From Trichocoleus sp. (lineage in GTDB: Bacteria > Cyanobacteriota > Cyanobacteriia > Elainellales > Elainellaceae): 32,000 nucleotides of DNA. The notes under the pieces are model-generated. The model saw only the letters and a program-made list of their open reading frames with translations, made no database searches and was not told the origin of the DNA. Location of the stretch: the NCBI GenBank assembly GCA_036702865.1, contig DATNQD010000045.1:1-32000 (forward strand), read 5' to 3'. Position 1 is the stretch's first letter; every line of letters begins with the position of its first letter. Below are positions 2,405 to 32,000 of this stretch, piece after piece. The position numbers and the translations under genes were made by a program.

Positions 2405-3142
2405 TTAGCTGCCTGTGGTGGGTAGATTACCTACCAGTAGTGTGATTACACCAAGCAGGAATAGCAGGAGAATCACTCCGGCAACTCTGCCCCAGTTTGT
2501 AGTTTGTACAAAGGTTTCCATCTCAAACGGTTCATTGAAGTTGAGGTTAAAGCGACTGACTGAAACATAAGGTTTGGCTTCAGGGAGACTGTCTCGGTAG
2601 TCTGCACCATAGCGGGGGGTGAAACTGAACGGGCGATCGGTCATGCGCTTCCGCTGATAAGGCACAACGCTGTCGCCAAAGTTTACGGTGTATTCCTCGC
2701 TGTCTAGCAATGCATCTACAAAGCTGCTCCAGCCAAGCGTTGCAATCTGCACTGACCAGGCAATCTCTTCCTCTTGATTGTATGGGGCGCGACCAAGCAA
2801 CCGCTTCAAGCACATTTCAACGAGCCGATAGTTATTGTTTGGCTCCACTACAAGTTGATAGAACCGCTCAGACTTTGTTAGTCCTCGAACAAAATCACGG
2901 ACTGAGATGGTGTGATTCTTTAGCTGGGTTTCCAGCACGACCTGTCGGTTGAATTGGAGCATTTCCTGCTCATTAAATATCTGCCGATAGGTTGCTCGAA
3001 TCAGTGCATCCATTTCACTAGCTGTAGTAGCGTTGTCCAGTCGATACAGGTGAGGTGTATCTTCGTTGAGGTCAGATATTCCGAAACTTGACACTCGCTG
3101 ATTTCGAGTCGTCGGTTTGTAGTCTAGTAGAGGTAACGTCAT
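2405..3142 (-). CDS. cpcL: CpcL-type phycobilisome rod linker (CpcG paralog with C-terminal membrane anchor)
   Basis: The ORF track gives 2405..3229. The conserved CpcG N-terminus [10 protein letters not shown] begins at the ATG at 3142, preceded by a GGAGAA SD. A PBS-linker domain is present. The C-terminus [19 protein letters not shown] is a hydrophobic helix, as in CpcL. Confidence 0.85.
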
Positions 3143-3401
3143 GAGGTTTCTCCTGAAAAACTGCAATCCTACGTCTATGTTCGATGACAACTGGATGGGT
3201 TTTGTGAGTGATCTACCTGAATGAACCAATAAGTTTTCTAGTTTGAACAGCAGGAAAGCAGTCTCCCTGGCAGCAGTTCAAAAGTGTCACTCGCTCATTT
3301 AGGAAGACAAGCATGAAATAGACCTCTTGCAGCGATCGAACCGAGTTTTCATGATGCAGTGATGCAAGAGATCAGGAGTGTGTGAAGCAAACCTGTTTGG
3401 A

Positions 3402-3477
3402 GTAATTGGGGATAGGTAATTGGTCAAATTCAACTACAAATAAGTGATTGCCCGCCACCTACCACCCATTACCCATC
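3402..3477 (-). repeat. inverted heptamer-repeat hairpin just 3' of the second cpcG copy
   Basis: GATAGGTAATTGGT (3411-3424) pairs with ACCCATTACCCATC (3464-3477) at 12 of 14 positions. The right arm has period-7 units CCACCTA CCACCCA TTACCCA. It shares the 10-mer GGTAATTGGT with position 7211. Confidence 0.5.
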
Positions 3478-3494
3478 GGTTTGAACCCGGAAGG

Positions 3495-4235
3495 TTATCG
3501 CACTGGGAAGCTTGCCGAGGTGTTGATTGAAACAGGCGTATTTGGCTTCGTACTGCGGGTCATATCAGGAATCGTGATATTTGCCGTGTTAACTGAAACC
3601 GTCTTGCTTGGGGTGATCTGGATCGATCGTGCCATGTCACGGAAGTTGTTGATGTCGCCCCACTTATACCGTTGTGACTCAAGTTGATCCCGCCAGTAGT
3701 TACCGTAGCGAGGCGTCACTAAATTAAATGGACGATCTTTATAGCGACGACGCTGAGATGGAACTGTGTTGTCACCAAAGTTAACGCCGTATTCTTCACT
3801 GTCTACCAGCGCATCAACAAAGCTATCAAATCCTTTTGTCGCAATTTTGATCGACCAAGCAATTTTTTCATCTTCGTTGTAGGGCGATCGACCTAATAAG
3901 CGCTTCAGGCACAGCTCTACAACTCGGTAGTTGGAATTTGTTTCAACTACTAACCGCCGGAAAGTTTCAGACTTTGCTAGCCCTCGCACAAAATCGCGCA
4001 CTGTGATCGATCGGTTTTTGACCTGCGATTCCAGATTAGAGAGACGATTGCTCTTGAGAATGACGTGCTCACTGAACACCTGACGGTAAGCTGCCCAGAT
4101 AAGCTGTTCTAAATCGCTGTTGTCGGTGCAGTTTTCAAGACGGTAGATATAGGGGGTATCTTCGCCAGGAACTTCATAGCCAGGAACGCGATGATTCCGG
4201 GAAGAAGGAGTGTACTCGAGAAGAGGAATTGCCAT
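3495..4235 (-). CDS. cpcG: phycobilisome rod-core linker, CpcG family (2nd tandem copy)
   Basis: 246 aa. N-terminus is [13 protein letters not shown]-linker motifs are present ([45 protein letters not shown]). Confidence 0.9.
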
Positions 4236-4248
4236 TGGAGTTTGTAAA

Positions 4249-4269
4249 AGGATGAAGGATGAAATGAGG
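4249..4269. repeat. tandem heptamers AGGATGA AGGATGA AATGAGG in the spacer between the first and second cpcG copies
   Basis: Read directly from the sequence at 4249-4255, 4256-4262 and 4263-4269. Confidence 0.7.
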
Positions 4270-4285
4270 AGAGATTGAAGACAGT

Positions 4286-5125
4286 TTAGGCTTTGGGTGT
4301 ACCGTACAGATAGCGATAAGGGAGGGCTACTTTAGGCGGTTTCACGCTGGGTTTACTTAGTTCACTGCTGCGACTAGAGTCGGGAACCTTAACTGAACTT
4401 GAGGTTGCTCTTGCCACATCACGCTGTGAATCAACCTGCGGGATCAGCATTGTCTTCGTCATGTTGAAGAACATGGGAGAGATTGCCTGACGAATAATCT
4501 TGCGATCGAGATTGCCGCTTTGATATTGCCGTACCTGATAGTAGGAGCGGTTTTGTAGCTCCATTTCCACCAACCGTCCACGCCAGTAGTCGCTGTAGCG
4601 GGGATTGGTCAGGTTAAAGGGGCTTACTTCCATTCGTCGGCGCTGATAGGGGACAACATCATCGCCAAAGTTTTGCTGGTATTCTTCGCCGTCTACTACT
4701 GCATCAATAAAGCCATGTAGCCCTTTCGTAGCGATGACGATCGACCAAGCGATTTGCTCATCTTTGCCGTAAGAAGCCCGTCCCAGAAATCGCTTAAACG
4801 TGAGATCGACAATGCGATAGTTCGAGTTCAGTTCCGCAATCTGTTCTCGGTAAACCTCTGATTTTCCCAAACCCCGAATAAATTCTCGGACTGAGATTGC
4901 TCGATTTCGCAACTGAGATTCTAAAAATTGCTGACGGTAGCTTTCAAGAATCAAATGTTCACTAAAGATCTGACGATAGCAAGCCCAGATAATCTCAGTG
5001 ACATCGGTATCAGAAATCGCGTAACTCAGACGATACAGCTTGGCATCATCTTCATCAGCGACATCATAACCCTCTACCCGTTGATTCTGAGTCTTTGGAG
5101 TAACTTTGAGGAGGGGTATCGACAT
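4286..5125 (-). CDS. cpcG: divergent CpcG-family linker (1st tandem copy) with a long Ser/Pro/Lys-rich C-terminal tail
   Basis: The ORF track gives 4286..5149 with a TTG start. The family N-terminus MSIPLLKV begins at the ATG at 5125. The PBS-linker domain is recognisable but more diverged ([34 protein letters not shown]). Confidence 0.8.
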
Positions 5126-5172
5126 TCGCTTAACCTTAGTTATAGACAACTTTAAAAATCTGGCGAAATCTT

Positions 5173-5811
5173 TTAACTAGCGTCCGCCAGTACCTTTAGA
5201 GCCAGGAGACTTCTCGCCTGGACTGCTCGATCGGTATCTGTTTCACTCATCTGCTGGAGCCTAATTATCGTCTCAGGTGACGAAGGCAAAGCCAGGGCAA
5301 GGGCTTGAAGTCCCACAATTGCTGCATAGCGCAGTGACCAATCTGAGTCTTCGGTAATTTTAAGCAGGGACTCAAGCACCTGCTTTTGAGCCAAGGCGAC
5401 CTGCTCATCCGGTAGCAACTGCCATTGCAAAAAGCCCAATCCCTTCGTTGCAGCTCGTCGTACACTAGGCGCAAAATCTGCTTCAGCCGCAGCCAGTAAC
5501 ACGTCCAAGGCACGCGGATCACCAATTCCCACTAATGCCCGAATTGCCCAGGCTCTTGCCCCATAGTTGTAGTCATCCAGCAACTCCAACAAAGGCTTAA
5601 CCGCTGTCGTTCCCATTTCCACTAATCCCCGCACAGCGATCGCCGCTGCCCCAGCATTGTTAAATCCTAAGGCGCGAATTAGTGTCGGAATCCCTGCCTC
5701 CTGCCTTGCTGCCGCCAATGCCTGAACTGCGCTAATCAACTGCTCAGATGAACCTGCCTGATCAATTGCGTGAATTAAGGACTGGAGGCTAGAGGAATTA
5801 GTCGCAGTCAT
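5173..5811 (-). CDS. cpcF: phycocyanin alpha-subunit phycocyanobilin lyase, CpcF subunit (HEAT repeats)
   Basis: 212 aa, Ala/Leu-rich HEAT-like repeats (RAWAIRALVGIGDPRA, VRRAATKGLG, LRYAAIVGL). It sits directly after cpcE in the cpc operon. Confidence 0.85.
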   Translation of the reverse strand: MTATNSSSLQSLIHAIDQAGSSEQLISAVQALAAARQEAGIPTLIRALGFNNAGAAAIAVRGLVEMGTTAVKPLLELLDDYNYGARAWAIRALVGIGDPRALDVLLAAAEADFAPSVRRAATKGLGFLQWQLLPDEQVALAQKQVLESLLKITEDSDWSLRYAAIVGLQALALALPSSPETIIRLQQMSETDTDRAVQARSLLALKVLADAS

Positions 5812-5890
5812 GGGAGAGGAATAGGTTTTGGGTATTGAGGAAGTCGGGATAAATTATATGGACAATTACACTACAGGCAAGAGGGACATG

Positions 5891-6739
5891 CTAAAGCAAA
5901 CTATCCATCAGCGTCATCAGGTGAATTGCTTCTGGGGAAAGAGTTACTTTGTCCCTAACTTCATGTTCCAGCAAGCCTTTTAGAGAGAACAGCTTAAAGC
6001 TATTTTCTGCCGCTGCATTGGCAATTGCTTCTGCTGCCGGAAGATAGCCAACTGCTCCCAAATCAGACAAAGCAACACGACGTAAATTAATGTCACTGCC
6101 TGAAAGAGCCTGAATTAACCGATCGCCATATTGCGCTTCGCCTGTCAACTGATACATTGCCCTCGTGGCAGAGTATTGCACTCGTCCCATTGGATGCGAC
6201 AAAAACGGCTGAATCAAATCGATCGCCGTTGTCTGCCATTCAGTATTTGGAGCGAGTGCGCCCAGTGCCTCCATAACTGCCTCGTAAGGTTGAGCAAGAT
6301 GAGGACGACCCGGAACAAGCTGAGCTGCTGCAACACCACCCTGTAAAAAGGGCAATAAATCAGGTACACAAGATGAATCACTAAGCGTTCCAAGCGATTG
6401 AGCTGCTGCTTCCCGCACGTAAAAATCTTCGCAGAATAAACAGCACACTAAACCAGGAACGGCTCGTCGATCGTTTAGCTTTCCTAAAGCGCGCGCTGCA
6501 TTACGCCGCAAAGGATAGCCCCCTAACTCAGTACGGTCAGATTCATCTTCTAAAGCAGCAATCAGTGCATCAACTGCCGCTGGACAATCTACACGAAATT
6601 TCCCCAACCACCAGGCTGCGTAATATCGCAAGCTCAAGTCTGGATGAGTCAAGTTTGCAATTGCTTGCTCTACGGTCAATTCACCTGCTGAAGATGATCC
6701 AGAAGATCCAGCAGACTGTTCGGGGTTAGGCTCCAGCAT
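5891..6739 (-). CDS. cpcE: phycocyanin alpha-subunit phycocyanobilin lyase, CpcE subunit (HEAT repeats)
   Basis: 282 aa. Contains LSLRYYAAWWLGKFR and repeated HEAT-like units (RRNAARALGKL, VREAAAQSLG). It lies between cpcD and cpcF. Confidence 0.85.
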   Translation of the reverse strand: MLEPNPEQSAGSSGSSSAGELTVEQAIANLTHPDLSLRYYAAWWLGKFRVDCPAAVDALIAALEDESDRTELGGYPLRRNAARALGKLNDRRAVPGLVCCLFCEDFYVREAAAQSLGTLSDSSCVPDLLPFLQGGVAAAQLVPGRPHLAQPYEAVMEALGALAPNTEWQTTAIDLIQPFLSHPMGRVQYSATRAMYQLTGEAQYGDRLIQALSGSDINLRRVALSDLGAVGYLPAAEAIANAAAENSFKLFSLKGLLEHEVRDKVTLSPEAIHLMTLMDSLL

Positions 6740-6806
6740 GAGTTAGACAAAAACACAAATTGACAGAAGGCTACCAACAAACAACCTCTAAATGACACCG
6801 AATCCT

Positions 6807-6878
6807 CGTTTCCAGGTAAAGCCAGGGAAACCATTAACAGCTCAGCTTTCAAGCCTTACCTGGTGGAACCCGGAAACG
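6807..6878 (-). other. stem-loop with alternative pairing partners in the cpcD-cpcE spacer
   Basis: CGTTTCC (6807-6813) pairs with GGAAACG (6872-6878), and AGGTAA (6814-6819) pairs with TTACCT (6856-6861). A competing GGAAAC lies at 6826-6831. Confidence 0.3.
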
Positions 6879-6927
6879 AAAATAGGTGAACTAAAGTGGC
6901 TAAATGCTGATAGCCGATTGCAGCAAC

Positions 6928-7161
6928 TTAAGCAGTGAGCGCTTCAATCTTGACGATCTTGCCGCCCATCCGCAGAATACGCTGCATTTCGTCATTCATC
7001 CGGTTGTAGGGCACAGTGATGAACACGCTGCCGCTCTGACGGATGGAGTAGTTATTTTTATCGCTTTCCTCGTTCTGACGCAGTCCTACCACTTCATAGC
7101 GGAACATCCGGCTTCCCGAAGGACTATTTGCAGAACCACCAACCGCAGCTTGTCCAAACAT
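6928..7161 (-). CDS. cpcD: phycocyanin-associated small rod-capping linker CpcD
   Basis: The ORF track gives 6928..7197. The ATG at 7161 (MFGQAAVGG) has an AGGAGG SD about 10 nt upstream and matches the usual CpcD N-terminus. CpcD-domain motifs are present (RMFRYEVVGLRQ, SGSVFITVPYNRMNDEMQRI, GGKIVKIE). Confidence 0.85.
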   Translation of the reverse strand: MFGQAAVGGSANSPSGSRMFRYEVVGLRQNEESDKNNYSIRQSGSVFITVPYNRMNDEMQRILRMGGKIVKIEALTA

Positions 7162-7210
7162 TGGCTTTATACCTCCTGTAGTGATGATGTGAAACATATG
7201 GGAAATTGCA

Positions 7211-7278
7211 GGTAATTGGTAATGGTAAGTTCGATTGCTGACTCACAACCCATTACTAATTACCAATTACTCATTACC
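7211..7278 (-). repeat. inverted heptamer-repeat hairpin in the cpcC-cpcD spacer
   Basis: GTAATTGGTAAT (7212-7223) is perfectly complementary to ATTACCAATTAC (7259-7270). The right arm reads as the period-7 units CATTACT AATTACC AATTACT CATTACC (7251-7278). Confidence 0.6.
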
Positions 7279-7280
7279 GC

Positions 7281-8144
7281 TTATGCAGGTGAAACACTCA
7301 CAATTCTGCCGCCCTGCCGCTGAATTTGCTGCATTCTGGGAAGCAGTTGATTGTAAGGAACCAGATAAGCAGTGCTGCTACGACGAACACTCGGATATCC
7401 AGCTCCCCGTATTCCAGCCACTTCGAGGCGGAACATCCGAGGCTCATCACCTGTAACTGCACCACCCAGGCACTTTGCGGGCGCAACATCATTGCTTGCC
7501 CGATAGTGCGACCAGCTATTGCTGCTAGAAGGAGCAACGATCGACGAAGACTTGTTTTGTGCTAATTCACGAGCCAGACGAGAATTGTTTTGCTCTGTCT
7601 GAGCTCGATCGCTGTTAGCATAACCCCGGTACAGACGGAACATCCGGTTAAAGCCAACCGTTCTTGCACCTGTGTGGAAATCGAAACCCCGATAGTAGGG
7701 CACAATATTCTCACCAAAGGTTGCCTGATACTCTTCTGAATCGATGTAAGAATCGATCTCAGCGTCGTAACCTTCGTTTTCGTAGAGATCCAGGTGGAAA
7801 ATCACCTCAGACTCATCGTAAGGGGCACGACCCAACAAATGCTTGTAGTTGAGTTCAATGACCCGCGTTTGGAAACTGCTATAGAAAAACTTTTGTTTGT
7901 ATAGTTCAGACTTGGCAACGCACCGCACGAACTCCCGCACAGAAACTTTGCGGTCTCGCAACAGTGATTCAGCACTGATCAACCGCTCGGAAGCCATTAG
8001 ATAGTCGTTACCCAACACCTGACGATAGACCGCACGAATCACATTGTCTATGTCTTCTCTCGTCGAGGTCGGACGCAGTTCTACCCGTGCAGCATCACTA
8101 AATGCAGATGTTCCTAACCGGGAAGCTGCTGTTGTTACAGCCAT
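7281..8144 (-). CDS. cpcC: phycocyanin-associated rod linker CpcC (PBS-linker domain plus C-terminal CpcD-like domain)
   Basis: 287 aa. Linker-domain motifs are [27 protein letters not shown] and [14 protein letters not shown]. The C-terminal CpcD-like domain has [17 protein letters not shown] and [18 protein letters not shown] precedes the ATG at 8144. Confidence 0.9.
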
Positions 8145-8380
8145 GAGTTATCTCCTCCAACAAAGCGAGCTAGCCAAAAGAAGGGATGAAATCGGAAAGA
8201 TAAAGGATGAAGAAAATTAAATAAACACAGCGAATCAAAAATTAAAGCAAAACGAGCAATGAAGGCAACACAGCTTTTGCGATCGAGGAAAAAACAAGCC
8301 CACCTTTCTACTGAAGAGGCGAAAGTAGCTTTAACTTATTCCTCATCCCCCATCCCTCATCTTTCCTATAGATACACTAC

Positions 8381-8436
8381 GCCCGGAAAAGTAAACCATT
8401 GCTAGAGACAACCAGCAACCGCATACCTCTCCGGGC
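8381..8436 (-). terminator. GC-rich stem-loop just 3' of cpcA (candidate partial terminator or mRNA-stabilising hairpin)
   Basis: GCCCGGA (8381-8387) pairs with TCCGGGC (8430-8436). An inner pairing is TTGCT (8399-8403) with AGCAA (8414-8418). The structure begins 11 nt after the cpcA stop codon. There is no clean U-tract. Confidence 0.35.
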
Positions 8437-8447
8437 TGCACGATCAA

Positions 8448-8936
8448 TTAGCTGAGAGCGTTGATCGCGTAATCGATGTAAGCATTAGCTTCAACAGCAG
8501 CTTGACCTGTGATACCGTGGTTAGCCTTGATGCTCTTCAGAGCTTCAACATACCAGCTAGGAGACAGATCAAAGGTGCGGTTGATTTCGTCCAGACCAGC
8601 AACCAGGTACTCATCCAGAGGACCGGTACCACCAGCAACCAAGCTATAGGTGATGATCCGCAGGTAGTAACCGATGTCACGAGCGCACTTGGACTTACCA
8701 CGAGCATCAGCAGCGAAGTTAGAACCTTGCTGTTGAGTTGTGTAAGGGAACTTTTGGTATACAGCATTTGCTGCACCATCAATCAGGCTCTGTGCATTGT
8801 TGGTCAGTGTGCGAGCAGCCTCTAGAGCAGCAGCAGCGCGCTCATAACGACCGAACACTTGGTGCATTTCAGCATTGCTGAGGAAACGGCCTTGAGTATC
8901 TGCAGCAGAAATTGCTTCAGTAATGGGGGTCTTCAT
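8448..8936 (-). CDS. cpcA: C-phycocyanin alpha subunit
   Basis: 162 aa. Starts [20 protein letters not shown]. The bilin-binding Cys sits in [11 protein letters not shown]. The C-terminus is [10 protein letters not shown]. Confidence 0.95.
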
Positions 8937-9061
8937 TATGTTATCTCCCTAATGTTTAATCCTTCAAAGTTTGCAGCGAGAAGAGATGTCATTAGTTATT
9001 TGCCTTGAATCATGCGTCAACTGCTAAAGCAAGTAACAGAGGACGATGCTCAAAGGACAAA

Positions 9062-9580
9062 TTAACCAACTGCAGCAGCAGCGCGATCGAAATAGCTAGC
9101 CAGCTCAGAAACGAGAGAGCTGCAATCACCCTTGGTAATACCATTGGGATCGTTAGCAATTGCAAGAGCAGCATCCTTCATTTTTTGAACGCCCGCAGCC
9201 ACAGAACCACCGGGAACGCCCAGAGCTTGGTAGGTCTCACGTAGACCGTTCAAGCAGCGATCGTCAAGAACGCTGGAATCGCCAGCCAAAGTTGCGTAGG
9301 TAACATAGCGCAAGATGATTTCCATGTCGCGCAAGCAAGCAGCCATACGACGGTTGGTGTAAGCATTTCCGCCTGGCTGGATGAGCTGAGGCTGTTCTTC
9401 AAACAGAGCACGAGCTGCATTAGCAACGATGGTGGAAGCATTACCGGTGACGCGGTTCACAACGTCCAAGCGCTTGTTGCCTTCGCGAACCAGATTGTTC
9501 AGCGCATCGAGCTGGGAAGCACTTAGAAACTCACCTTTTGCATCTGCTTGAGAAACAACTTTGGCGAATGCATCTAGCAT
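9062..9580 (-). CDS. cpcB: C-phycocyanin beta subunit
   Basis: 172 aa. Starts [20 protein letters not shown]. Contains Cys82 ([10 protein letters not shown]) and Cys153 (KGDCSSL). An AGGAGA SD is present. The operon context (cpcA/C/D/E/F/G) supports phycocyanin rather than phycoerythrocyanin. Confidence 0.93.
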
Positions 9581-10433: not shown

Positions 10434-10910
10434 ATGATTCGATCTTGGATGGTAATTGGCGGCGTCACATTCGTTATTGCTCTAATTGGCGGCAGTATCA
10501 ATCCACCTCAGGGAGTGCAGTGGTTTAAGCGGCTTCGACGTCCTCAATGGCTTACCTTTGAGGCTGCTATTCCCCTAATCTGGATCACCATCTTTGTCTG
10601 CGGCGCATGGTCAGCCTACATTGTTTGGGAAAAAGACCCTAGTAGCTCCAAGACCTGGCTGTTGATGGCAGGCTATTTGCTGCTAGAACTGCTGACACTG
10701 GCATACAATCCCGTCATGGAGTTTCTTCGGAGCCTTAAAGCAGGCACAATCATTGGCGCAACTGGTGCCCTCTGGGGCATCCTCCTAACGCTCATCGTTC
10801 TACCCATTTCTGGCTGGGCAGCCCTCTTGCTCCTCCCCTATGTTCTTTGGAGCCCGATCGGCACTTATACGACTTGGGAAATGGCGAAGTTAAATCCAGG
10901 AGATGTTTAA
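10434..10910 (+). CDS. TspO/MBR-family (tryptophan-rich sensory protein-like) membrane protein
   Basis: The ORF track gives 10272..10910. The ATG at 10434 gives about 158 aa, which fits the 5-TM TspO size. Family-like motifs are WFKRLRRPQW, IPLIWITIFVCGAWSAYIVW and the C-terminal LLLLPYVLWSPIGTYTTWEMAKLN. Confidence 0.65.
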   Translation: MIRSWMVIGGVTFVIALIGGSINPPQGVQWFKRLRRPQWLTFEAAIPLIWITIFVCGAWSAYIVWEKDPSSSKTWLLMAGYLLLELLTLAYNPVMEFLRSLKAGTIIGATGALWGILLTLIVLPISGWAALLLLPYVLWSPIGTYTTWEMAKLNPGDV

Positions 10911-11104
10911 GAGATAAGCAGAGACAGGAGAAGAAAAGAAAACTCCTGCCCCTATCATCCGCGCCCGACCATTTGAGGATTCGGCAAAGATTTGGTGCAA
11001 TTCGATCGCTTAGAGCTACAATCCTAACTGCCGAAACAGGTTATCTTGAAAGCCTTACGGCTGTGGTTGATGCAGTTCAAGCCGGACATTTGAGGAGAGT
11101 TGGT

Positions 11105-11572
11105 ATGGTTCGTTCCCTAGTTCCTTTACAAAAATTAATTCTCCGTGGTGCGGTAGCAGTTGCTGTTAGCATTCTGGCGGTCAGTTGCTCTGAGAGCAAA
11201 ACTTCTCAATGTAATAAGCTCATTGAGGTTGCGAATCAGGCAGTCACTCAGGTTCAATCAGTGACTCAGAACACTGATCCAAGTAATGCAAATCCTAATA
11301 ACGTTCAGGCGATGAGCAAAATTGCGGATGCAGCCGACCAGGCCCGATCGCAGATGCAAGCTTTACAGCTCTCGGACAATAACTTAAAAGCGTTTCAAGA
11401 TCGTTTTGTGGCAATGTATACCGAAACCAGTCAAGCGACGCGCGAACTGGTAGCAGCAGCAAATGCCAATAATCCTGAAAATGCTCAAAAATCATTCAAC
11501 GCACTGAAAGCAGCAACAGATAAAGAGAGTCCACTCGTGGAAGAAGTCAATCAGTTTTGCACGAAAGAATAA
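11105..11572 (+). CDS. hypothetical helical lipoprotein
   Basis: The ORF track gives 10847..11572. The ATG at 11105 has a GAGGAG SD and gives a signal peptide ending in the lipobox-like LAVSC. The rest is Ala/Gln/Asn-rich and helical. The longer form would overlap the TspO-like gene. Confidence 0.5.
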   Translation: MVRSLVPLQKLILRGAVAVAVSILAVSCSESKTSQCNKLIEVANQAVTQVQSVTQNTDPSNANPNNVQAMSKIADAADQARSQMQALQLSDNNLKAFQDRFVAMYTETSQATRELVAAANANNPENAQKSFNALKAATDKESPLVEEVNQFCTKE

Positions 11573-18481: not shown

Positions 18482-18647
18482 AAACGTTACTCGATTCCCG
18501 TTGAAATACCTCTCATCATTTTGCCCGATCGCACCCAGAACAGTGTTTTTTGCAAACCATTATCTTTGGCACAGGGCAGGTCGAGCGACCTATAATTTAA
18601 GAAATGTAACAGATTTAGGCTCCAGTTCTGGCAAATCCGGATTTATC

Positions 18648-18947
18648 ATGCCTCAAATGTCTTATCGAGCGATCGATCAGTTTCAAGCTTGTTTGTCTCT
18701 TGCCGCCGATCTGTCCCGTCATGCTGAAGCAAAACAAGCCTTCTCAAAATTGCACAACGAGCTAGCGACCGATCACCCTTTTGCCGCACAAATGCTCGAA
18801 CTCGCCTGGAACGAAGTGCTTGCCGCAAAGCGATCGGCAGGTTTCTGGGAGCGGATTTCTAACGCAGAGCGCCAGATGACAGAGCAAATGGCAGCCAGCC
18901 ATGTCCAGCTTCAGCAAAACTATCTGCGCTTGATCCAGGAACAGTAA
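18648..18947 (+). CDS. hypothetical small helical protein
   Basis: The ORF track gives 18501..18947. The ATG at 18648 (MPQMSYRAIDQF) gives 99 aa. No family was recognised. Confidence 0.4.
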   Translation: MPQMSYRAIDQFQACLSLAADLSRHAEAKQAFSKLHNELATDHPFAAQMLELAWNEVLAAKRSAGFWERISNAERQMTEQMAASHVQLQQNYLRLIQEQ

Positions 18948-20897: not shown

Positions 20898-22496
20898 ATG
20901 GTTTACGCGATCGATTTTGGGACAAGCAATACTGTCGTTGTGCGCTGGAATCCGGTGACACAGCAGGCTGAAACGGTGACCTTATCCGAAATTGCCCAAC
21001 GTCTGGCCGAGAATCCGCCGCTCGTTCCCAGTTTGTTGTTTGTAGAAGATGCGAGTCAGGGAAACGTTGTCATTGGACAACAGGTACGCGATCGAGGCTT
21101 AAATCTGGGCAGCAGTTCTCGGTTTTTCCGCAACTTCAAACGCGGCATTGGCACAGAACTTCAGGGATTTTTGCCAGAGTTGGACGATCGTATTGTCACG
21201 TTTGAACAGGTGGGGCAATGGTTTCTCTCTAACGTCATTCAACAACTTCAGGCGAGCGATCCCAATCTTGAATCGCTGGTTTTCACCGTTCCGGTGGATA
21301 GTTTTGAGGCATATCGGCTGTGGCTGACCCAGGTGTGCCAGTCGCTTCAGGTGGAGCAAGTCCGAATGCTCGATGAGCCAACCGCAGCAGCTTTAGGCTA
21401 TGGCTTGCAGAATCAGGGAACGATTTTAGTTGTTGACTTTGGGGGTGGAACGCTGGATATGTCGCTGGTACGGCTAGAAGGCGATAAACGGAACCCCGAA
21501 AAGAAACCATTGGGCTTTTTGCTCAAGTTTGGGCAGAAGGTTTTAGAGGAGTCGGCACAGCGTCCAAAACTGGCACGAGTTTTAGCAAAAGCAGGGCAAA
21601 ATCTGGGTGGTTCTGATATCGATAACTGGATTGTTGATTACTTCACCCAAACTCAGGAACTCGCCTGCACACCCCTGACGCTTCGACTTGCCGAACGCCT
21701 GAAAATTCAGCTTTCCCAACAGACTGAAGCCACTGAAGTTTATTTTAACGACGAAACGTTTGAGAGCTACGAGCTTCAGATGAGCCGCGATCGGTTCAAC
21801 CAACTCCTGACCGAGCACCAGTTTTTCGAGCGCCTGGATGCCTCAATGACCCAGGTCCTTCAGCAGGCACAGCGACAGGGGTTAATCACAAACGAGATCG
21901 ATGCTGTTTTACTGGTCGGTGGAACGGCTCAGATTCCTGCCGTCAAAACCTGGATCGAGCAATATTTTCCTGTGGAAAAGATCCGATCGGACAAACCATT
22001 TGAGGCGATTGCTCAAGGCGCGCTCCAGATTCAGCAGGGCATCGAAGTCAGGGATTACCTCTATCACAGCTACGGCATCCGCTATTGGGATCGGCGAAAT
22101 AACTGTCATGGCTGGCATCCCTTGATCAAGCAAGGACAACCGTACCCAATGGATCGTCCCGTTGAGCTGTTTTTGGGTGCTTCGATCGAAAGCCAGCCCA
22201 GCATTGAGCTGATCATCGGCGAACTCGGACAGGAAACGGGCGCAACTGAAGTCTTTTTTGACGGCGATCGCCTGGTGACTCGGACGGTGAGTGGCGGCAC
22301 ACCCATTGTCAAACCGTTGAACGATCAGGGAGCTGCCCGCACGATCGCTCAACTCAAACCACCCGGATACCCTGGCAGCGATCGAATTAAAGTCTTGTTT
22401 CGGGTTGATGAATCTCGTTTTCTGCGAATCACGGTCGAGGATATTTTGACGGCTGAAACGTTGTTAGACGATCGAGCGGTTGTGCAATTGAGCTGA
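20898..22496 (+). CDS. Hsp70-family (DnaK-like) ATPase, short atypical form
   Basis: 532 aa. Actin-fold and Hsp70 motifs are AIDFGTSNTVV, DEPTAAALGYG, VVDFGGGTLDMSLV and LLVGGTAQIPAV. The C-terminal part is short with no recognisable helical lid. Confidence 0.85.
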   Translation: MVYAIDFGTSNTVVVRWNPVTQQAETVTLSEIAQRLAENPPLVPSLLFVEDASQGNVVIGQQVRDRGLNLGSSSRFFRNFKRGIGTELQGFLPELDDRIVTFEQVGQWFLSNVIQQLQASDPNLESLVFTVPVDSFEAYRLWLTQVCQSLQVEQVRMLDEPTAAALGYGLQNQGTILVVDFGGGTLDMSLVRLEGDKRNPEKKPLGFLLKFGQKVLEESAQRPKLARVLAKAGQNLGGSDIDNWIVDYFTQTQELACTPLTLRLAERLKIQLSQQTEATEVYFNDETFESYELQMSRDRFNQLLTEHQFFERLDASMTQVLQQAQRQGLITNEIDAVLLVGGTAQIPAVKTWIEQYFPVEKIRSDKPFEAIAQGALQIQQGIEVRDYLYHSYGIRYWDRRNNCHGWHPLIKQGQPYPMDRPVELFLGASIESQPSIELIIGELGQETGATEVFFDGDRLVTRTVSGGTPIVKPLNDQGAARTIAQLKPPGYPGSDRIKVLFRVDESRFLRITVEDILTAETLLDDRAVVQLS

Positions 22497-26028: not shown

Positions 26029-29000
26029 TCAAGGATTACAGATCTGTCGATCGCTTTCTTTTAGCCTGGGATTCGTTTTGAGGTAGTCGTGCAGCTGCTC
26101 GCACCCTTGCTGCAATAAGTTAGGCAGATTGAGATCCCAAACAATCACATTTCCTGCTTCATCACCACTAATGAGTTTGCGATCGTCAGCGCTAAATTCA
26201 ACGCTATTGATCCGGCTACGATGCCCTAAGAGTGTTTTAAGCAGCGTTCCATCTGCCATTGACCAAAGCTTAATTGTGCCATCGGCGCTACTCGAAGCCA
26301 GCGTTCTACCATTCGCACTAAAGTCTAAGCTAACGACACCCCCCTGATGACCGACAAACGATCGGAATGGCGTTGCACCAATATGCTGATCTTTGACCCG
26401 CCACAGTTGAATAGTGTTATCCCAACGGGCAACCGCTAGAACTGTCCCTTCAGGATTGAAGCGAATAGAAGCAACAGCAGAGGGCTGATCGATCGTTTGT
26501 AAAAGTGTGCCATCAAGACGCCAGAGTTTGAGGGTATTGTCATAACTGCCGGATGCCAAAGTTTGCCCATCGGGACTGAAAGTAATCGAGGTGATACCAT
26601 CTGTATGCCCGGTTAAGGTGGTTTGCAACCAACCGTCTAGTTGCCAGAGCTTAATGGTTTTGTCGTTGCTGCCAGTTGCGATCGTCTGACCCTTTGGGTT
26701 GAAGGCAATCCTAGTAACTCCATCTCGATGTCCGGTGAATGTGGTCAGCAACGCTCCATCTGAAACGCGCCAAAGTTTTGCCTGATTGTCCCATCCGGCA
26801 GAAGCTAAGAGGCGATCGTCTGGGCTGAATTGAATCTCTGAAACGGTTGATTTGTGTGCTTGCAGCCGCCGGACTAAGCGACTTGGGGTATTCTGCACCG
26901 TATGCCAGATCTCGATCGTACCGTTCCAACCTGCCGTGGCAAATGTGCGATCCCCCTCTGGGATTGTTGGCAGCGAAGGACTCCATTGGGCACTGTAAAT
27001 GCTGCCTCCCTGCTGTAAAGGCTGGTTGTTTCCGGTCTTCCAAAGTCGGATCGTTTTGTCTGCACTGGCAGAGGCAAGCTGGCTTCCATCTGGGCTGAAT
27101 TGAATGCTCGAAATCTCGCCGCCATGCCCTTCAAAGGTTTGTTGCAGCAGACCCGCACGATTCCAGAAATCAATCCGACCATTGGCACTCGCTGCTGCGA
27201 TCGTTTGTCCATCCGGGCTAAACCTGACACCATTCACTAAGGCTGATTGTGTTTGTCCAGACGGCAAGACTTGAGAAGTACCGTTTGCCAAATTCCAAAC
27301 CCGAACTGCATGACCACTCGCAGAAACGAGTCGTTGATTATCGGGACTGAACGCAACACTCGTGACTCGATCGCCTGATCCGTTCAAAATACGAATCAAG
27401 ACGCCATCTTGCCGCCAGATCCGAATCGTTTTATCTTCACTGGCAGAAGCAATCTGTCCGTTTGAGCCAAAGCTGACCTGATTCACCCATCCTTGATGCC
27501 CTGCCAAAGTCTTGATCAGCGTTCCATCTAATCTCCACAGTTTGAGGGTACGATCGCGGCTTGCAGAAACGATCGTTCTACCATCTGGGCTAAAGGCAAC
27601 ACTCGTGACCCAATCTTGATGTCCGACTAGACTCTGTTGCAGCTTCACATCACCTGTTGCAGGGTCAAAACCCCAGAGTTTGATGGTTTTGTCTGCACTG
27701 GCAGAAGCAATGGTATTGCCATCCGGACTGAAGGCAACGGAGGTCACGCGATCGTCATGTGCGGTCAGCGTGTTGAGGAGGCTGCCATCTCGTCGCCAAA
27801 GCGCGATCGTCTTATCATCACTGGCTGACGCGAGAAATTGACCACTAGGGCTAAAACTGACTGCGTTCACCTGTTGTGTATGATGTTCGAGCCGATTTCG
27901 CTCTTGGGTATTGTAAAGCGCCTGCTGCATCGTGCTGGTGACGATCGTTTGGGTATCTGTCCAGGTTGGAGCGCCAATTAACCATTTCCCCAGTCCGCCA
28001 ATCTGTTGAAACTGCTGTGCCGCCTTTACGCCACTGAGGAGAGATTCAAGCTGTTGATTCGACCATAAAAGTGCTTCTGAAGAAGCATCTAATGCTGCAA
28101 TGTTTTCAATTTGTGCTGTCAGTTTTTGCTTATAAGCGAGTCCTCCTAGCCCCAAAGCAACCAACCCTAAAGCGCCAATCAGAGCAGCCGCAATTTGTGC
28201 CCGTCTGAGGCGTTGTTGCGCCTGACGCTGTTCTTGCTGCCGAGCCTCTAAGCAAGCTTCGATAAACCGCTGAACTGGCTCAGACAATTCGTCTGTGTAT
28301 TTCACGTAGAGTTCTTCTGCTTCGGCAAGGCGCACTCCCCGTAGGAGAAAATCAGGCTGTTGTCCTCGCTGCATCCAGAGCTGTGCTGATTGTTCGAGCT
28401 GCCGCTGTAAGTGGAGTCGGGCCCGGTTTTCGTCTAGCCACCAGCGCAAGGTTGACCAGTGACGAATCAGGATCTCGTGAGCCACCTCGATCGTGATATC
28501 CGCAGCAGAGAGGGAAGACGGAGAGGAAGGAAGGGCAGAAGCGGATTGAATTTCTGTGCCTTGTTGTCTGTTGCCTTGCTTCTCCTCGTTTTGAGACTGT
28601 TGATTTTCTCCTCGACTTTGTCCTGAAATCCCCTGTCCTGAAATACTTTCTTCTTCCAGGTTAACAACAAGCAGTTTCGCTGCCGTCAGAACTTGTAACG
28701 TGCGCTCAACCAAAGGAGCCGGATATTTCGCAACCACTAAGCTGGACTTGAGGACACGCCGACGGGTATCTTCTGTACCTTCTCCTAGCTGAGTGAGGGT
28801 AAGAAAAATCCATTGGGCACAGGCTTGAGCCTCTGGATCCAAGCTGTCATAGGCTGCCTGCGCTTGCCGTTCTAAGGCTCCCTTGAGTCCCCCAATTTGC
28901 TGGTAACTCTGCAACGTGAGCTTGCTGCCCTGACGCTGTTGCCAAAGCTGCTCTAGAACGAATTGCAGCAGCGGTAAATCCCCAGCCGAGTGGTTCAGTT

Positions 29001-31371
29001 CAGACAACAACACTTCCGCCAACCCCGACTCAATTTGCAGACCTACTTGTTCAGCAGGATGAACGATCGCCTGACGGTAACTCTCCTCTGTGAGATAAGG
29101 CGGAACCAGAACACTAGACTGCTGTAAAATCTTCGCTAATTCAGGAATTTCTAAACAGGGAGCGATAAAGTCTGCTCGTAATGTCAACACAAGCTTGAAG
29201 CGATCGCTTGCATAGGTTACGGCTCCGATCAAGAGTTCCAAAAAGCGATCTCGATCGATAGGTGCTGCCAGTGTAAAGAGTTCCTCAAACTGATCGATGA
29301 CAAAAACGACCAGCGGTTCGGGGCGCGATCGTAGCCACTGCACCAATCCTTCAACCCCTTGATATAGCAGTCCTTCAATCTGTAACTGCTGGTAAGCACG
29401 TTCTTTTTCTGTGCCCGGATCAACCAAACGACGCGACAACGATTTGACAGGTTCAGCGCCCGGTTGGAAGCAACCGATCCACCAATGCTGGCTACCCGGC
29501 AACTGCTTGCCCTGCCGTAACTGAGTCATCAATCCGGCTTGTACCACAGAAGATTTGCCGCTGCCTGAAGCACCCACCACCGCTAAACAAGAGCGATGTC
29601 TCAGTTCATCAACCAGTGTTTGAGTCAACGATTCTCGCCCATAGAAATATTGAGCATTTTCTTCAGCGAACGCTCTCAGCCCCATATAGGGACACAGCCC
29701 TAAATCCAATTCCTCAAAAGGCTTCGCTGCCTTTGCCCCCATTCGTCCCGGTAAAACTTCAATCACGCCTTGCGACCCGGATAGCCAAACTTGAGGCTCG
29801 GTCGCGGTTCCAGCCAGATAAACCTGTAATTGAGCAATCCAGGCAGCGATCGGCAAGCCGGCTTGAGGGTCAGTTTGTTGTAGGGTTTCGAGCAGGGCTT
29901 GCGTAAATTGCTCGGATTGGGCGATCGGTGAAGCAGCAGCAATGATACATTGACCGCGATCGGAGCCGATTTGCAAATCTTCGACCCAAGTGCTGAGAGA
30001 AGTTGCGCCCGGACAATCGAAGAGGAGGATTTGCTGTGCCATACGAGACTGGCGCAAAACCTGCCGTAGCCAAGAGCGACTAAGCTGTACCCCATCGCCT
30101 AACACCAACCAGGCTTCACCGTCTGGTGTCTCTTCAACTCGTCCTCGTAAATAGAGCAGAGCAGTTGTCGTGGCTTGTGGCAGCGAAGCAGAAAAGAAGT
30201 TTGTCGATCGCTCTCTATCCTTGCTATTCCAGGTTTCAATGTCCCGTGGTGTGGCTTGATCATTCCCATCAGCTTCACTCTGGCAACCCAAACAGTCTAA
30301 AATTGCTTGCCGAATCTCTGACCAGGCTTTACCAGGACGAGGGAAATACTCTAATTCAAAGCCCCCTGAACTTCGCAGCACTTTACCCAACGACAGCGTT
30401 TCCTGCCCACTGGGTATGCCTTCAACCACAAGTGCCCGACGAAGCGAAAAAGATGGGACGGTGGGCGATCGCACCCCTAACACTAATTCTCCTACCCCTT
30501 CGACAATTCGCTTCGGGGTTTGTAGCGGAAACTCTGACTGAAGCTGACGATCGCCTCGGCTGCTTTTTTGCTGATTTACTAAGCGAATTTGTTGATTGGT
30601 CTTGTCAATATATTGCAGCGTTTGATGATAGACGTATTTGTATAACGTATCTGCCTCAATCAAGCCCTGAGCATCGATCGCCTCACCCCGTAGCCCGTGC
30701 ATCAAGTAATAGGTAAACACGCCATGCCCCAGTTCGGGGAACTCCCAGGACTGTTGATTTTGGTCGCAGGACAGCAGCGCATAAAAGCCTTTGCTCTGTG
30801 CCGCCCGTTGCCGCAGGACTTCAATGAGTTGAGAAGTTGGGTTGAGAAGGGGAGCTGGATCTGTTTTGCTTCTGGCTCCTTTCAACGTCATGCCGCCACT
30901 ATGACAGGCATCAAGCCAAACAAGCTGTTGGTGTGCAGCACAATTGCTAAGATGTTGCAGCAGTTCTTGTAAGGGTAGCCCGGTCTGCAATAAACTTTCT
31001 TGCTGCGTGTCTGCTAAACAAAGAACGGCTTGCTGATTATTTGCGCCTAGAGTGCCATGCCCTGAAAAGTAGATGAGAACCGTATCTTGAGGCTGTGCTG
31101 CCTGGGTAATGTATTGCAGGCTGGCCCGGACGTTTGCTCCAGTGGGGGGGCGATCGGCAAAATCATGATGGATTCTGACTTCCTTTTTGGGAAAAGCCTG
31201 AGTTGCGACGGTGAGTGCGTCACTTAACCCCTGGCAATCGAGGGCAGGGTAACGCAAGGTGGGCAGGCTTGGCTCCTGGTACTGGTTCACCCCAACCAGG
31301 AGCATCCAAAGTTGAGCACTGCCTGTTTCTAAAGCATATGTGGAGCGACTCGTGCCAATGGTAGTGGGCAT
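26029..31371 (-). CDS. multidomain caspase(C14)-pseudocaspase-STAND P-loop NTPase-TM-WD40(x14) protein
   Basis: Uninterrupted 1780-aa ORF. The caspase dyad is YFSGHGT (His105, codon 31057-31059) and LDACHSGG (Cys156, codon 30904-30906). Walker A is GASGSGKS (29551-29574) and Walker B-like is VVFVIDQFEE (29281-29310). A hydrophobic helix IAAALIGALGLVALGLGGLAY lies at 28132-28194. Fourteen WD repeats with xLW/xIW ends lie at about 26092-27894. Confidence 0.9.
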   Translation of the reverse strand: MPTTIGTSRSTYALETGSAQLWMLLVGVNQYQEPSLPTLRYPALDCQGLSDALTVATQAFPKKEVRIHHDFADRPPTGANVRASLQYITQAAQPQDTVLIYFSGHGTLGANNQQAVLCLADTQQESLLQTGLPLQELLQHLSNCAAHQQLVWLDACHSGGMTLKGARSKTDPAPLLNPTSQLIEVLRQRAAQSKGFYALLSCDQNQQSWEFPELGHGVFTYYLMHGLRGEAIDAQGLIEADTLYKYVYHQTLQYIDKTNQQIRLVNQQKSSRGDRQLQSEFPLQTPKRIVEGVGELVLGVRSPTVPSFSLRRALVVEGIPSGQETLSLGKVLRSSGGFELEYFPRPGKAWSEIRQAILDCLGCQSEADGNDQATPRDIETWNSKDRERSTNFFSASLPQATTTALLYLRGRVEETPDGEAWLVLGDGVQLSRSWLRQVLRQSRMAQQILLFDCPGATSLSTWVEDLQIGSDRGQCIIAAASPIAQSEQFTQALLETLQQTDPQAGLPIAAWIAQLQVYLAGTATEPQVWLSGSQGVIEVLPGRMGAKAAKPFEELDLGLCPYMGLRAFAEENAQYFYGRESLTQTLVDELRHRSCLAVVGASGSGKSSVVQAGLMTQLRQGKQLPGSQHWWIGCFQPGAEPVKSLSRRLVDPGTEKERAYQQLQIEGLLYQGVEGLVQWLRSRPEPLVVFVIDQFEELFTLAAPIDRDRFLELLIGAVTYASDRFKLVLTLRADFIAPCLEIPELAKILQQSSVLVPPYLTEESYRQAIVHPAEQVGLQIESGLAEVLLSELNHSAGDLPLLQFVLEQLWQQRQGSKLTLQSYQQIGGLKGALERQAQAAYDSLDPEAQACAQWIFLTLTQLGEGTEDTRRRVLKSSLVVAKYPAPLVERTLQVLTAAKLLVVNLEEESISGQGISGQSRGENQQSQNEEKQGNRQQGTEIQSASALPSSPSSLSAADITIEVAHEILIRHWSTLRWWLDENRARLHLQRQLEQSAQLWMQRGQQPDFLLRGVRLAEAEELYVKYTDELSEPVQRFIEACLEARQQEQRQAQQRLRRAQIAAALIGALGLVALGLGGLAYKQKLTAQIENIAALDASSEALLWSNQQLESLLSGVKAAQQFQQIGGLGKWLIGAPTWTDTQTIVTSTMQQALYNTQERNRLEHHTQQVNAVSFSPSGQFLASASDDKTIALWRRDGSLLNTLTAHDDRVTSVAFSPDGNTIASASADKTIKLWGFDPATGDVKLQQSLVGHQDWVTSVAFSPDGRTIVSASRDRTLKLWRLDGTLIKTLAGHQGWVNQVSFGSNGQIASASEDKTIRIWRQDGVLIRILNGSGDRVTSVAFSPDNQRLVSASGHAVRVWNLANGTSQVLPSGQTQSALVNGVRFSPDGQTIAAASANGRIDFWNRAGLLQQTFEGHGGEISSIQFSPDGSQLASASADKTIRLWKTGNNQPLQQGGSIYSAQWSPSLPTIPEGDRTFATAGWNGTIEIWHTVQNTPSRLVRRLQAHKSTVSEIQFSPDDRLLASAGWDNQAKLWRVSDGALLTTFTGHRDGVTRIAFNPKGQTIATGSNDKTIKLWQLDGWLQTTLTGHTDGITSITFSPDGQTLASGSYDNTLKLWRLDGTLLQTIDQPSAVASIRFNPEGTVLAVARWDNTIQLWRVKDQHIGATPFRSFVGHQGGVVSLDFSANGRTLASSSADGTIKLWSMADGTLLKTLLGHRSRINSVEFSADDRKLISGDEAGNVIVWDLNLPNLLQQGCEQLHDYLKTNPRLKESDRQICNP

Positions 31372-31633: not shown

Positions 31634-32000
31634 TTATTGAACTGGAACAATCACACCACAGCCAATTCTCGCACCAGCATTGCCGTTGGGTTGGCTAAAA
31701 TCATCTGCTTTTTCATGTAAGACGATCGCTCGTCCAGTAACTGCGTATGAACCATCATTTAACGTCAGATATGGAAAGGTTTGATCGAGAATAGCAGTCC
31801 CATTTGGATCAACTGCGACATTTCCCAAATCTCCCGCATGGGCTTGTTGCAAGCCGTTGACTAATAAATGTCCATGCTCGACCTGATCAGGGTTGAAGTG
31901 ACCACCAGATGCCATGCCGTTTTCTGCACAACTGCCAATTTCATGGATATGGAATCCGTGCTTGCCAGAGGGTACATTTGTGAGGGTTCCAGATAGATGC
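31634..32000 (-). CDS. sodC: Cu/Zn superoxide dismutase (5' end lies beyond the window)
   Basis: The track ORF 31634..31915 continues in frame to the window edge. Hand translation of 31916-31999 gives HLSGTLTNVPSGKHGFHIHEIGSCAENG, followed by MASGGHFNP, HAGDLGN and RIGCGVI, all Cu/Zn-SOD signatures. Confidence 0.85.
   Translation of the reverse strand, partial: HLSGTLTNVPSGKHGFHIHEIGSCAENGMASGGHFNPDQVEHGHLLVNGLQQAHAGDLGNVAVDPNGTAILDQTFPYLTLNDGSYAVTGRAIVLHEKADDFSQPNGNAGARIGCGVIVPVQ

Follow-up and report, generated by a model that had tools for sequence, protein, structure and literature searches.

A cyanobacterial gene that joins two caspase folds, an nSTAND1 NTPase, and WD40 repeats may encode a single-pass membrane receptor

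Results

A caspase-NTPase-WD40 gene in Trichocoleus

The DNA analyzed here is a stretch of 32,000 nucleotides from the cyanobacterium Trichocoleus sp. (contig DATNQD010000045.1, positions 1 to 32,000 of the forward strand) that we call the window. It contains one gene, at 26029-31371 on the minus strand, that is predicted to encode a protein 1780 amino acids (aa) long. Judged from its sequence and from structure models, this is a cyanobacterial gene whose product begins with an active, metacaspase-like Peptidase_C14 domain followed by a dead caspase-fold domain, an nSTAND1 nucleoside triphosphatase (NTPase), one predicted transmembrane (TM) helix, WD40 repeats in two sets of seven, and a tail bearing a pair of cysteines. 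We favor, with a probability of about 0.55, the reading that this protein is a receptor that crosses the membrane once and has a STAND NTPase as its core. The pair of caspase folds and the NTPase, which together make up the first 1057 residues, are probably cytoplasmic, and the WD40 propellers probably lie in the periplasm or the thylakoid lumen. The gene has the following features.

26029..31371, minus strand: whole open reading frame (ORF), 1780 aa plus stop codon, with an ATG start
30472..31314, minus strand: active caspase (Peptidase_C14), residues 20-300, from Pfam, NCBIfam, and an AlphaFold2 (AF2) model with Foldseek
31057-31059, minus strand: codon of H105, in SGHG at residues 103-106
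30904-30906, minus strand: codon of C156, in DACHSG at residues 154-159
29737..30459, minus strand: pseudocaspase, residues 305-545, a caspase fold without the His/Cys dyad
28354..29697, minus strand: nSTAND1 NTPase, residues 559-1006, from Pfam PF20703
29551-29574, minus strand: Walker A motif GASGSGKS, residues 600-607, including K606
29281-29310, minus strand: Walker B motif VVFVIDQFEE, residues 688-697
28498-28659, minus strand: low-complexity insert rich in Gln, Ser, and Gly, residues 905-958
28132..28200, minus strand: single predicted TM helix, residues 1058-1080 (AQIAAALIGALGLVALGLGGLAY), from Kyte-Doolittle hydropathy
27037..27921, minus strand: WD40 repeats 1-7, residues 1151-1445, presumed seven-bladed propeller 1, from Pfam and a unit hidden Markov model (HMM)
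26134..27036, minus strand: WD40 repeats 8-14, residues 1446-1746, presumed seven-bladed propeller 2, from Pfam and the unit HMM
26032..26133, minus strand: C-terminal tail, residues 1747-1780, with C1757 and C1778, the only cysteines after the helix

A preliminary description of this DNA had reported a 1780-aa ORF combining a caspase, an NTPase, and WD40 repeats in the order effector, switch, and sensor. The ORF is real. It lies on the minus strand and begins with an ATG codon that agrees with the homologues, in which M1 is invariant, and the identical protein is encoded on a 131.6-kb metagenome contig (locus L001). Direct reading of the translation placed every motif listed in that description at its residues. 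All three kinds of module (C14 protease, P-loop NTPase, and WD40 repeats) are backed by profile searches and their order is correct. The HIP1 sequence reported at 30465-30472 was found as well; a second copy lies within the gene at 29200-29207, and the whole window contains five. Three features were absent from that first reading: the dead caspase fold at residues 305-545, the TM helix at residues 1058-1080, and the conserved C1757/C1778 pair in the C-terminal tail.

The query itself is missing from the homologues listed and no protein longer than about 1300 aa is among these matches, so full-length orthologues were taken from genome contigs. A species-level scan using one genome per species yielded 22 loci with 53-70% identity over residues 2-1101. 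These come from taxa that include Coleofasciculaceae, Elainellales, Chroococcidiopsis, Gloeocapsopsis, Stenomitos, Acaryochloris marina MBIC11017 (L017), and Tolypothrix tenuis PCC 7101 (L021). Orthologues are present in at least 20 cyanobacterial genomes, with full ORFs of 1696-1868 aa. At one locus, from Leptolyngbya sp. BL-A-14 (L015, 7989-10982), the orthologous ORF ends at 997 aa with an unrelated tail, suggesting a frameshift or a pseudogene. This locus and one at which the N-terminus is missing (L005) were left out of our conclusions.

The catalytic and NTP-binding residues are kept across orthologues. The NTPase is the best conserved region (63-75% identity) and the propellers are the least conserved (35-58%); the corresponding values are 58-70% for the caspase and 40-57% for the pseudocaspase.

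The WD40 region is predicted to lie outside the cytoplasm

The only 19-residue stretch in the protein with a Kyte-Doolittle hydropathy above 1.6 is at residues 1060-1078 (mean 2.26). It forms part of the predicted TM helix that sits past the end of nSTAND1 and ahead of the first WD40 repeat, with the arginine-rich sequence QRLRRAQ directly ahead of it, and that is conserved in the orthologues. We scanned 116 nSTAND1 relatives and found a hydrophobic segment approximately 415-460 aa past Walker A in most of those that reach far enough. The position of this segment holds for relatives with WD40 and with pentapeptide sensors alike and its sequence is not conserved, as expected for a membrane anchor. 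For the 75 relatives with both helix flanks, the 15 flanking residues contained on average 5.5 lysines and arginines upstream and 2.4 downstream, and the upstream count was the higher in 68 of the 75. By the positive-inside rule, this excess predicts that the N-terminus is inside and the C-terminus outside.

The cysteines of the protein are divided unevenly by the helix, with 15 in the first 1056 residues and two in the 701 residues after it. Both of the latter belong to a tail motif, GC..L.DYL.TNP....DR.(I/L)C, and this C1757/C1778 pair is kept in all 16 long orthologues. Exactly two cysteines follow the helix in 14 of these 16, with 8-16 before it. Of the best 119 matches to the WD40 region, 86 show a helix no more than 200 residues ahead of the repeats. 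The tail is carried by 107 of the 119, and in 73 of these the repeat part has exactly two cysteines. WD40 matches without the tail have 0-21 cysteines in the repeat region, and two is not a favored number. A domain poor in cysteine with one conserved pair is the usual mark of an exported, disulfide-bonded domain. From this pattern, the C-terminal tail is probably closed by a disulfide. Three independent properties, namely the conserved helix, its positive-inside flanks, and the cysteine pattern, point indirectly to propellers that are outside the cytoplasm.

The combination of helix, double WD40 propeller, and tail (GC.W..DYL.TN....DR.LC) recurs as a cassette in cyanobacteria (proteins P0237-P0355). 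The modules N-terminal to the recurring cassette are annotated as AAA-like, kinase, SpoIIE phosphatase, or nSTAND1. The sole match annotated as TIR (P0238) has the helix and lacks the tail with the cysteine pair.

Pfam marks 13 WD40 stretches at residues 1151-1746, and an HMM built from the units themselves marks 14, the number given in the preliminary description. Tandem Repeats Finder detected no DNA-level tandem repeats in this region and there was no repeat homogenization. Nothing therefore suggests that the repeats were recently shuffled in the fungal NWD manner.

The preliminary description had cast the protein as a soluble sensor resembling an apoptosome or Avs. Put fully, this alternative holds that a soluble or peripherally anchored cytosolic protein uses its WD40 repeats to bind an intracellular phage or stress protein, which releases the NTPase, activates the caspase, and ends in abortive infection. 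The order of effector, NTPase, and repeats is indeed that of Avs, bacterial NACHT (bNACHT), and Apaf-1 proteins. PMC13581612 places cyanobacterial caspase-STAND-WD40 proteins among Apaf-1-like sensors, and KrAvs12 shows that a caspase-STAND fusion can defend against phage (PMC12642450). We nonetheless consider a cytosolic antiphage sensor unlikely. Between the NTPase and the sensor there is a hydrophobic helix that is conserved and whose flanks follow the positive-inside rule, and the propellers are depleted of cysteine except for one conserved pair. PADLOC returned no Avs model and Pfam no NB-ARC match, the neighborhood has neither a defence island nor mobile genes, and several lineages have flanking genes in common. 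A sensor placed outside the cytoplasm would be blind to phage proteins within the cell and unable to fold back onto the NTPase in the way that the Apaf-1 sensor does.

An active caspase is followed by a pseudocaspase

Residues 23-231 match Peptidase_C14 (PF00656; E = 4.6e-17) in Pfam, and the SGHG and DACHSG motifs supply the intact His105/Cys156 dyad that had been reported. The caspase-hemoglobinase fold of C14 proteases is also supported by an AF2 model of the domain, which Foldseek matches to MALT1, metacaspase-9, and caspase-9. H105 and C156 are invariant among 36 homologues, as is D45; these three residues and D154 are invariant in 15 of the 16 orthologues, those aligned over the caspase region. 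The closest solved relatives of the domain are metacaspases with the motif DSCHSGG, and DACHSGG of the Trichocoleus protein aligns with this motif in metacaspase-4 and metacaspase-9. Because it has D154 within a metacaspase-type DACHSG and an invariant D45, which from TbMCA2 we take to be a residue of the S1 pocket, the protease is predicted probably to cut after Arg or Lys at P1. In the AF2 model, residues 156-179 form a low-confidence loop that carries K164, R167, and K169. The domain scores 139.8 bits with the NCBIfam model caspase_w_EACC1 (NF047832), for which the cut-off is 140.

The region that follows, residues 305-545, matched no family in a Pfam scan. Its AF2 model, made for these residues alone, has a predicted local distance difference test (pLDDT) score of 83.7 and a predicted template modeling (pTM) score of 0.81. 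All of the top 50 Foldseek matches of this model in the PDB are caspase-fold proteins (best E = 3.6e-6), including MALT1, metacaspase-9, CED-3, caspases 6, 7, and 9, and GPI transamidase. Alignment of the first caspase domain with residues 305-545 by hhalign (E = 6.5e-5) pairs YFSGHG with YLRGRV and LDACHSG with FDCP-G. Thus, in the second domain the catalytic His is replaced by Arg and the register of the Cys is lost. The motifs LYLRGR (407-412) and LDCPG (451-455) of the pseudocaspase are kept in orthologues, and residues 367-399 form a disordered insert within it.

The kinship between the two domains is visible only by profile-profile and fold comparison; a single-sequence BLASTP comparison of one with the other was not significant. 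A profile of residues 305-545 matched only 150 of 1.84 billion representative proteins, and against PDB sequences it matched nothing meaningful. In its strong matches the domain lies at approximately residues 300-530. Its weaker matches fall on stretches at the N-terminus; in those nSTAND1 relatives that were checked, each with one caspase domain, Pfam labels these stretches Peptidase_C14. Hundreds of proteins from cyanobacteria match residues 1-558, with 53-63% identity over 89-100% of their length and, for most of them, over 97-100%. Residues 305-545 are conserved together with the caspase domain. The C-terminal parts of these relatives vary and include DUF8082, GUN4, or nSTAND1. On the evidence of the AF2 model, the Foldseek matches, the profile-profile alignment, and the pattern of profile-search matches, the N-terminal module is an active caspase followed by a catalytically dead duplicate. 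A limited literature search on bacterial pseudocaspases found no description of such a tandem. Both the tandem pseudocaspase and the tail with its cysteine pair may be unreported, with no literature search having been aimed at the tail.

A Ser/Thr kinase with a C-terminal DUF8082 domain (PF26309) is encoded at 2624-3883 of L001, approximately 6 kb past the right end of the window. DUF8082 also follows the caspase-pseudocaspase module in most of the relatives that are about 700 aa long. From sequence, it looks like a shared partner domain.

The NTPase belongs to nSTAND1

The nSTAND1 family (PF20703) was defined in PMC8195603. In Pfam, positions 1-378 of its 379-position profile align with residues 561-1006 (E ~1e-122, 412.9 bits). 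The sequence CPYMGLRAFAEENAQYFYGRE occupies residues 560-580, and its CPYMGL motif is the beginning of the Pfam nSTAND1 model. Both NTPase motifs of the preliminary description, GASGSGKS and VVFVIDQFEE, are present in this full-length match. Orthologues show no change in Walker A and hardly any in Walker B, with DQFEE conserved. That description had proposed a STAND/NACHT-like switch, of which the STAND class stands and NACHT does not: the NACHT score of 25.9 bits is just under the curated cut-off of 26.7. A Pfam scan of residues 559-1164 at E values up to 1, which lists nSTAND1, AAA_16, nSTAND6, NACHT, and others, gave no match to NB-ARC. No solved relative of the nSTAND1 region was detectable by sequence. 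The Gln/Ser/Gly-rich insert at residues 905-958 falls within the C-terminal part of the nSTAND1 match and is not conserved in orthologues.

These data also bear on whether the protein could be a scaffold or an adhesion-type WD40 protein in which the caspase and NTPase are catalytically idle. One of its two caspase-fold domains is clearly inactive, and the name Hat/HatR, which has been attached both to a caspase-DUF8082 relative and to a single WD40 protein, shows how scant the knowledge of such proteins is. Yet H105, C156, D45, D154, and Walker A stay invariant and Walker B nearly so in proteins that are only 53-70% identical, and no region is better conserved than the NTPase. We therefore regard an idle scaffold as very improbable.

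The gene stands alone among housekeeping genes

The window and the 10 kb beyond it contain housekeeping genes, as follows.

Window and 10 kb beyond: glyQ, a phycocyanin operon, TspO, D-Ala-D-Ala dipeptidase, and a response regulator
Window and 10 kb beyond, continued: a UbiE-type methyltransferase, a GGDEF protein, TrpRS, an Hsp70-like protein, YkuD, an aminotransferase, and a GH1 glycosidase
31634-32000 of the window (9103-9738 of L001), minus strand: Cu/Zn superoxide dismutase (SOD) gene, 262 bp upstream of the caspase gene on the same strand

We found no integrase, transposase, or defence genes in the window or the 10 kb beyond it, in agreement with the preliminary description. Its picture of a resident, stand-alone gene also fits, given the housekeeping neighborhood and the lack of a conserved partner gene. 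Some loci share flanking genes with the window: SOD is upstream in L004 (2602-3246), from an Elainellales genome, an FHA-ABC transporter gene is shared with L005, and the series aminotransferase-YkuD-Hsp70 is downstream in L009 and L022. These shared flanks indicate vertical inheritance at one chromosomal position.

No linked partner or substrate gene, whether EACC1, gasdermin, or another, was found in 18 loci, where no neighbor recurs in more than four. The genes directly upstream in these 18 loci are heterogeneous and unrelated to one another. In the window, the gene directly 5' of the caspase gene is Cu/Zn SOD and not EACC1; the EACC1-specific model was not run on every small ORF. No gene in the window or in the flanks bears a gasdermin label from Pfam. 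The window contains no tRNA genes and no matches to Rfam.

A sigma-70-family gene was observed in the fetched flanks (up to about 9 kb) of the window's own contig (L001 1-1111) and of five other loci (L007, L010, L012, L014, and L023), and in three of those loci a DUF1822-family gene is beside it. The association is loose.

The neighborhood is relevant to a second alternative, in which a protein with the same membrane layout has a non-lethal output. Limited cuts in a regulator, such as an antitoxin, an anti-sigma factor, or the protein itself, would reprogram a stress or envelope response. The gene is vertically conserved across orders in a housekeeping context, it has no adjacent pore-forming or nuclease partner gene, and both the window's contig and five related loci have a sigma-factor gene in the flanks examined, at most about 9 kb away. 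MaOC1, the one biochemically studied active orthocaspase, cleaves an antitoxin (PMC7935541). On the other side, the link to the sigma factor is loose, no regulator gene is consistently linked (with no neighbor in more than four of the 18 loci), and those related caspase-STAND systems for which tests exist are lethal to the cell (PMC12642450). We consider a purely regulatory output doubtful, and the least improbable of the alternatives.

An Hsp70/DnaK-like gene encoding 532 aa lies at 20898-22496 of the window on the plus strand, approximately 3.5 kb from the caspase gene. Its position is kept, together with those of the aminotransferase and YkuD genes, in L009 (9215-10804) and L022 (15549-17138). 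Lidless DnaK-like domains occur fused to EACC1-protease modules (PMC12642450). A link between this Hsp70-like neighbor and the function of the caspase gene would be speculative.

Elsewhere in the window, a phycocyanin-type operon extends over 1419-9580 on the minus strand. It comprises cpcB/A-like phycobiliprotein genes (8448-9580), a linker gene with a CpcD domain (7281-8144), genes for two HEAT-repeat lyase subunits (5173-6739), and four more tandem paralogous genes for phycobilisome rod linkers (1419-5149), which makes the linker set unusually large. Two plus-strand ORFs, at 10847-11572 (241 aa) and 18501-18947 (148 aa), have no Pfam match and may not be genes.

Discussion

If the Trichocoleus protein is a membrane receptor, a ligand or an envelope-derived cue would bind the outer propellers and the glycine-rich helix would pass the signal on as a change in oligomeric state. 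The nSTAND1 modules would then oligomerize in an NTP-dependent manner and draw the caspase domains together, with the pseudocaspase serving as a built-in partner or brake of the active caspase. The protease may first cut its own loop at residues 156-179, which contains K164, R167, and K169, and then cytoplasmic substrates encoded elsewhere. The outcome would be growth arrest or cell death. In this arrangement the protein resembles a death receptor more than a cytosolic apoptosome.

A bolder version is offered tentatively, and we think it less probable than not. Here, a STAND NTPase that signals across the membrane would be the bacterial counterpart of an extrinsic death receptor. The disulfide-stapled outer double propeller would sense a cue from the envelope, from a neighboring cell, or from phage entry, the glycine-rich helix would transmit it, and nSTAND1 would assemble the caspase/pseudocaspase pair in the manner of caspase-8 and cFLIP. 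The shared ectodomain cassette, which also follows AAA-like, kinase, and phosphatase modules, would then define a class of surface receptors in cyanobacteria.

Several points weigh against a membrane receptor that acts through its caspase. The topology is read entirely from hydropathy, charge bias, and the cysteine pattern. Known STAND proteins are governed by contact between the sensor and the NTPase, and we know of none that has been shown to signal across a membrane. The layout would call for export of propellers of approximately 700 residues behind a cytoplasmic part of 1057 residues; this is plausible, and the analogy behind it is the PknB-type receptor kinases. The caspase domain comes to within 0.2 bits of the cut-off for EACC1-associated caspases, and no substrate gene is linked to the caspase-NTPase-WD40 gene in the 18 loci. 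The predicted P1 preference is drawn from just two aspartates, and KrAvs12 is modeled to cleave beside an Asp (PMC12642450).

For about twenty years, and without a genetic handle, opinion has been divided on what orthocaspases do in cyanobacterial cell death. The caspase-NTPase-WD40 family is their commonest multidomain form. Should the predicted topology be true, these proteins would be the first STAND switches driven from outside the cell. They would thus not be sensors of intracellular phage proteins, and the reading of "bacterial Apaf-1-like" proteins would change. The tandem pseudocaspase and the tail with its cysteine pair are concrete targets for mutation, and the presence of orthologues in the genome-sequenced A. 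marina MBIC11017 and T. tenuis PCC 7101 makes direct testing possible.

Comparison with known systems

The protein shares with Apaf-1 and caspase-9 a STAND-class NTPase, a double WD40 propeller, and a caspase output that works by induced proximity. Apaf-1 is a soluble protein with an NB-ARC NTPase that recruits its caspase in trans via a CARD. Its propellers act as a clamp on the NTPase and bind cytosolic cytochrome c, and the caspase cleaves after Asp. None of these traits (NB-ARC, recruitment in trans through a CARD, solubility, cytosolic propellers that clamp the NTPase, and cleavage after Asp) is seen or predicted here. An Apaf-1/AP-ATPase orthologue is ruled out by the lack of an NB-ARC match and by the helix at 1058-1080 between the NTPase and WD40 repeats. 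For Avs/AVAST, PADLOC gives only the generic "caspase" model and, on the WD40 part, "HEAT-ARM_XIII", and the neighbors are housekeeping genes. Bacterial NACHT was rejected on its Pfam score below the cut-off, set against 412.9 bits for nSTAND1, and a gasdermin-protease system on the lack of a gasdermin label among the window and flank genes. The protein is apoptosome-like in part, as an NTPase-driven caspase platform, yet is outside the Apaf-1, Avs, and bNACHT families.

MaOC1 of Microcystis aeruginosa is a small soluble protein without an NTPase, a helix, or WD40 repeats. It is likewise an active C14 protease, for which the basic P1 specificity predicted here has been reported (PMC8283722). 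The MaOC1 gene adjoins a toxin-antitoxin pair. PknB-type kinases consist of a large cytoplasmic enzyme, a single helix, and an extracytoplasmic sensor made of repeats, and ligand-driven clustering activates the enzyme. They have the same layout as that predicted for the Trichocoleus protein, with a kinase rather than a protease as the output and no NTPase switch.

KrAvs12 from Ktedonobacter (bioRxiv 2025, PMC12642450) is a caspase-STAND fusion that, once a phage protein triggers it, cleaves the pore-former EACC1; the EACC1-caspase system was defined in PMC7159879. The activity of KrAvs12 depends on the trigger and on the catalytic Cys, and its caspase is of a type related to the one here, which scores just below the NF047832 cut-off. 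KrAvs12 has its EACC1 substrate encoded upstream and senses phage tail-connector proteins in the cytoplasm (PMC12642450), whereas the gene here has Cu/Zn SOD upstream and no conserved small partner gene, and its WD40 sensor is beyond a membrane helix.

The gene belongs to a known, catalogued, and experimentally untouched family. As the preliminary description had stated, caspase-WD40 fusions have been catalogued in cyanobacteria (PMC8283722, PMC7475262, and PMC13581612), and we found no functional study of the caspase-NTPase-WD40 type. Of 473 cyanobacterial orthocaspases, 83 carry WD40, which makes it their most frequent accessory domain, with AAA_16 second (PMC8283722). A 2026 Nature paper (PMC13581612) describes caspase-STAND-WD40 "bacterial Apaf-1 orthologues", mostly cyanobacterial, that are alike in having a caspase-like protease at the N-terminus, a STAND NTPase, and beta-propeller sensors. 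It treats these sensors as intracellular, whereas here a helix parts an nSTAND1 domain with no NB-ARC match from the propellers. In a term search of PMC13581612, a membrane helix was not discussed and "transmembrane" appeared solely as a figure-legend abbreviation.

The closest likeness in domain order is to the transmembrane orthocaspases described in a 2020 review (PMC7475262), which have the arrangement p20-AAA_16/NACHT-TM-WD40 and include Ava_0039, Ava_3079, and GEI7407_1667. The order is the same, with an active p20, an NTPase, one TM helix, and C-terminal WD40 repeats. From bioinformatics only, that review had already put forward an extracellular location for the WD40 domain and an "extrinsic" pathway of death. 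Its account has no second, dead caspase fold, no conserved C-terminal Cys pair, and no assignment to nSTAND1, all three of which are found here. The tandem pseudocaspase, the tail with its cysteine pair, and the family-wide positive-inside helix thus sharpen a published hypothesis and do not create a new category.

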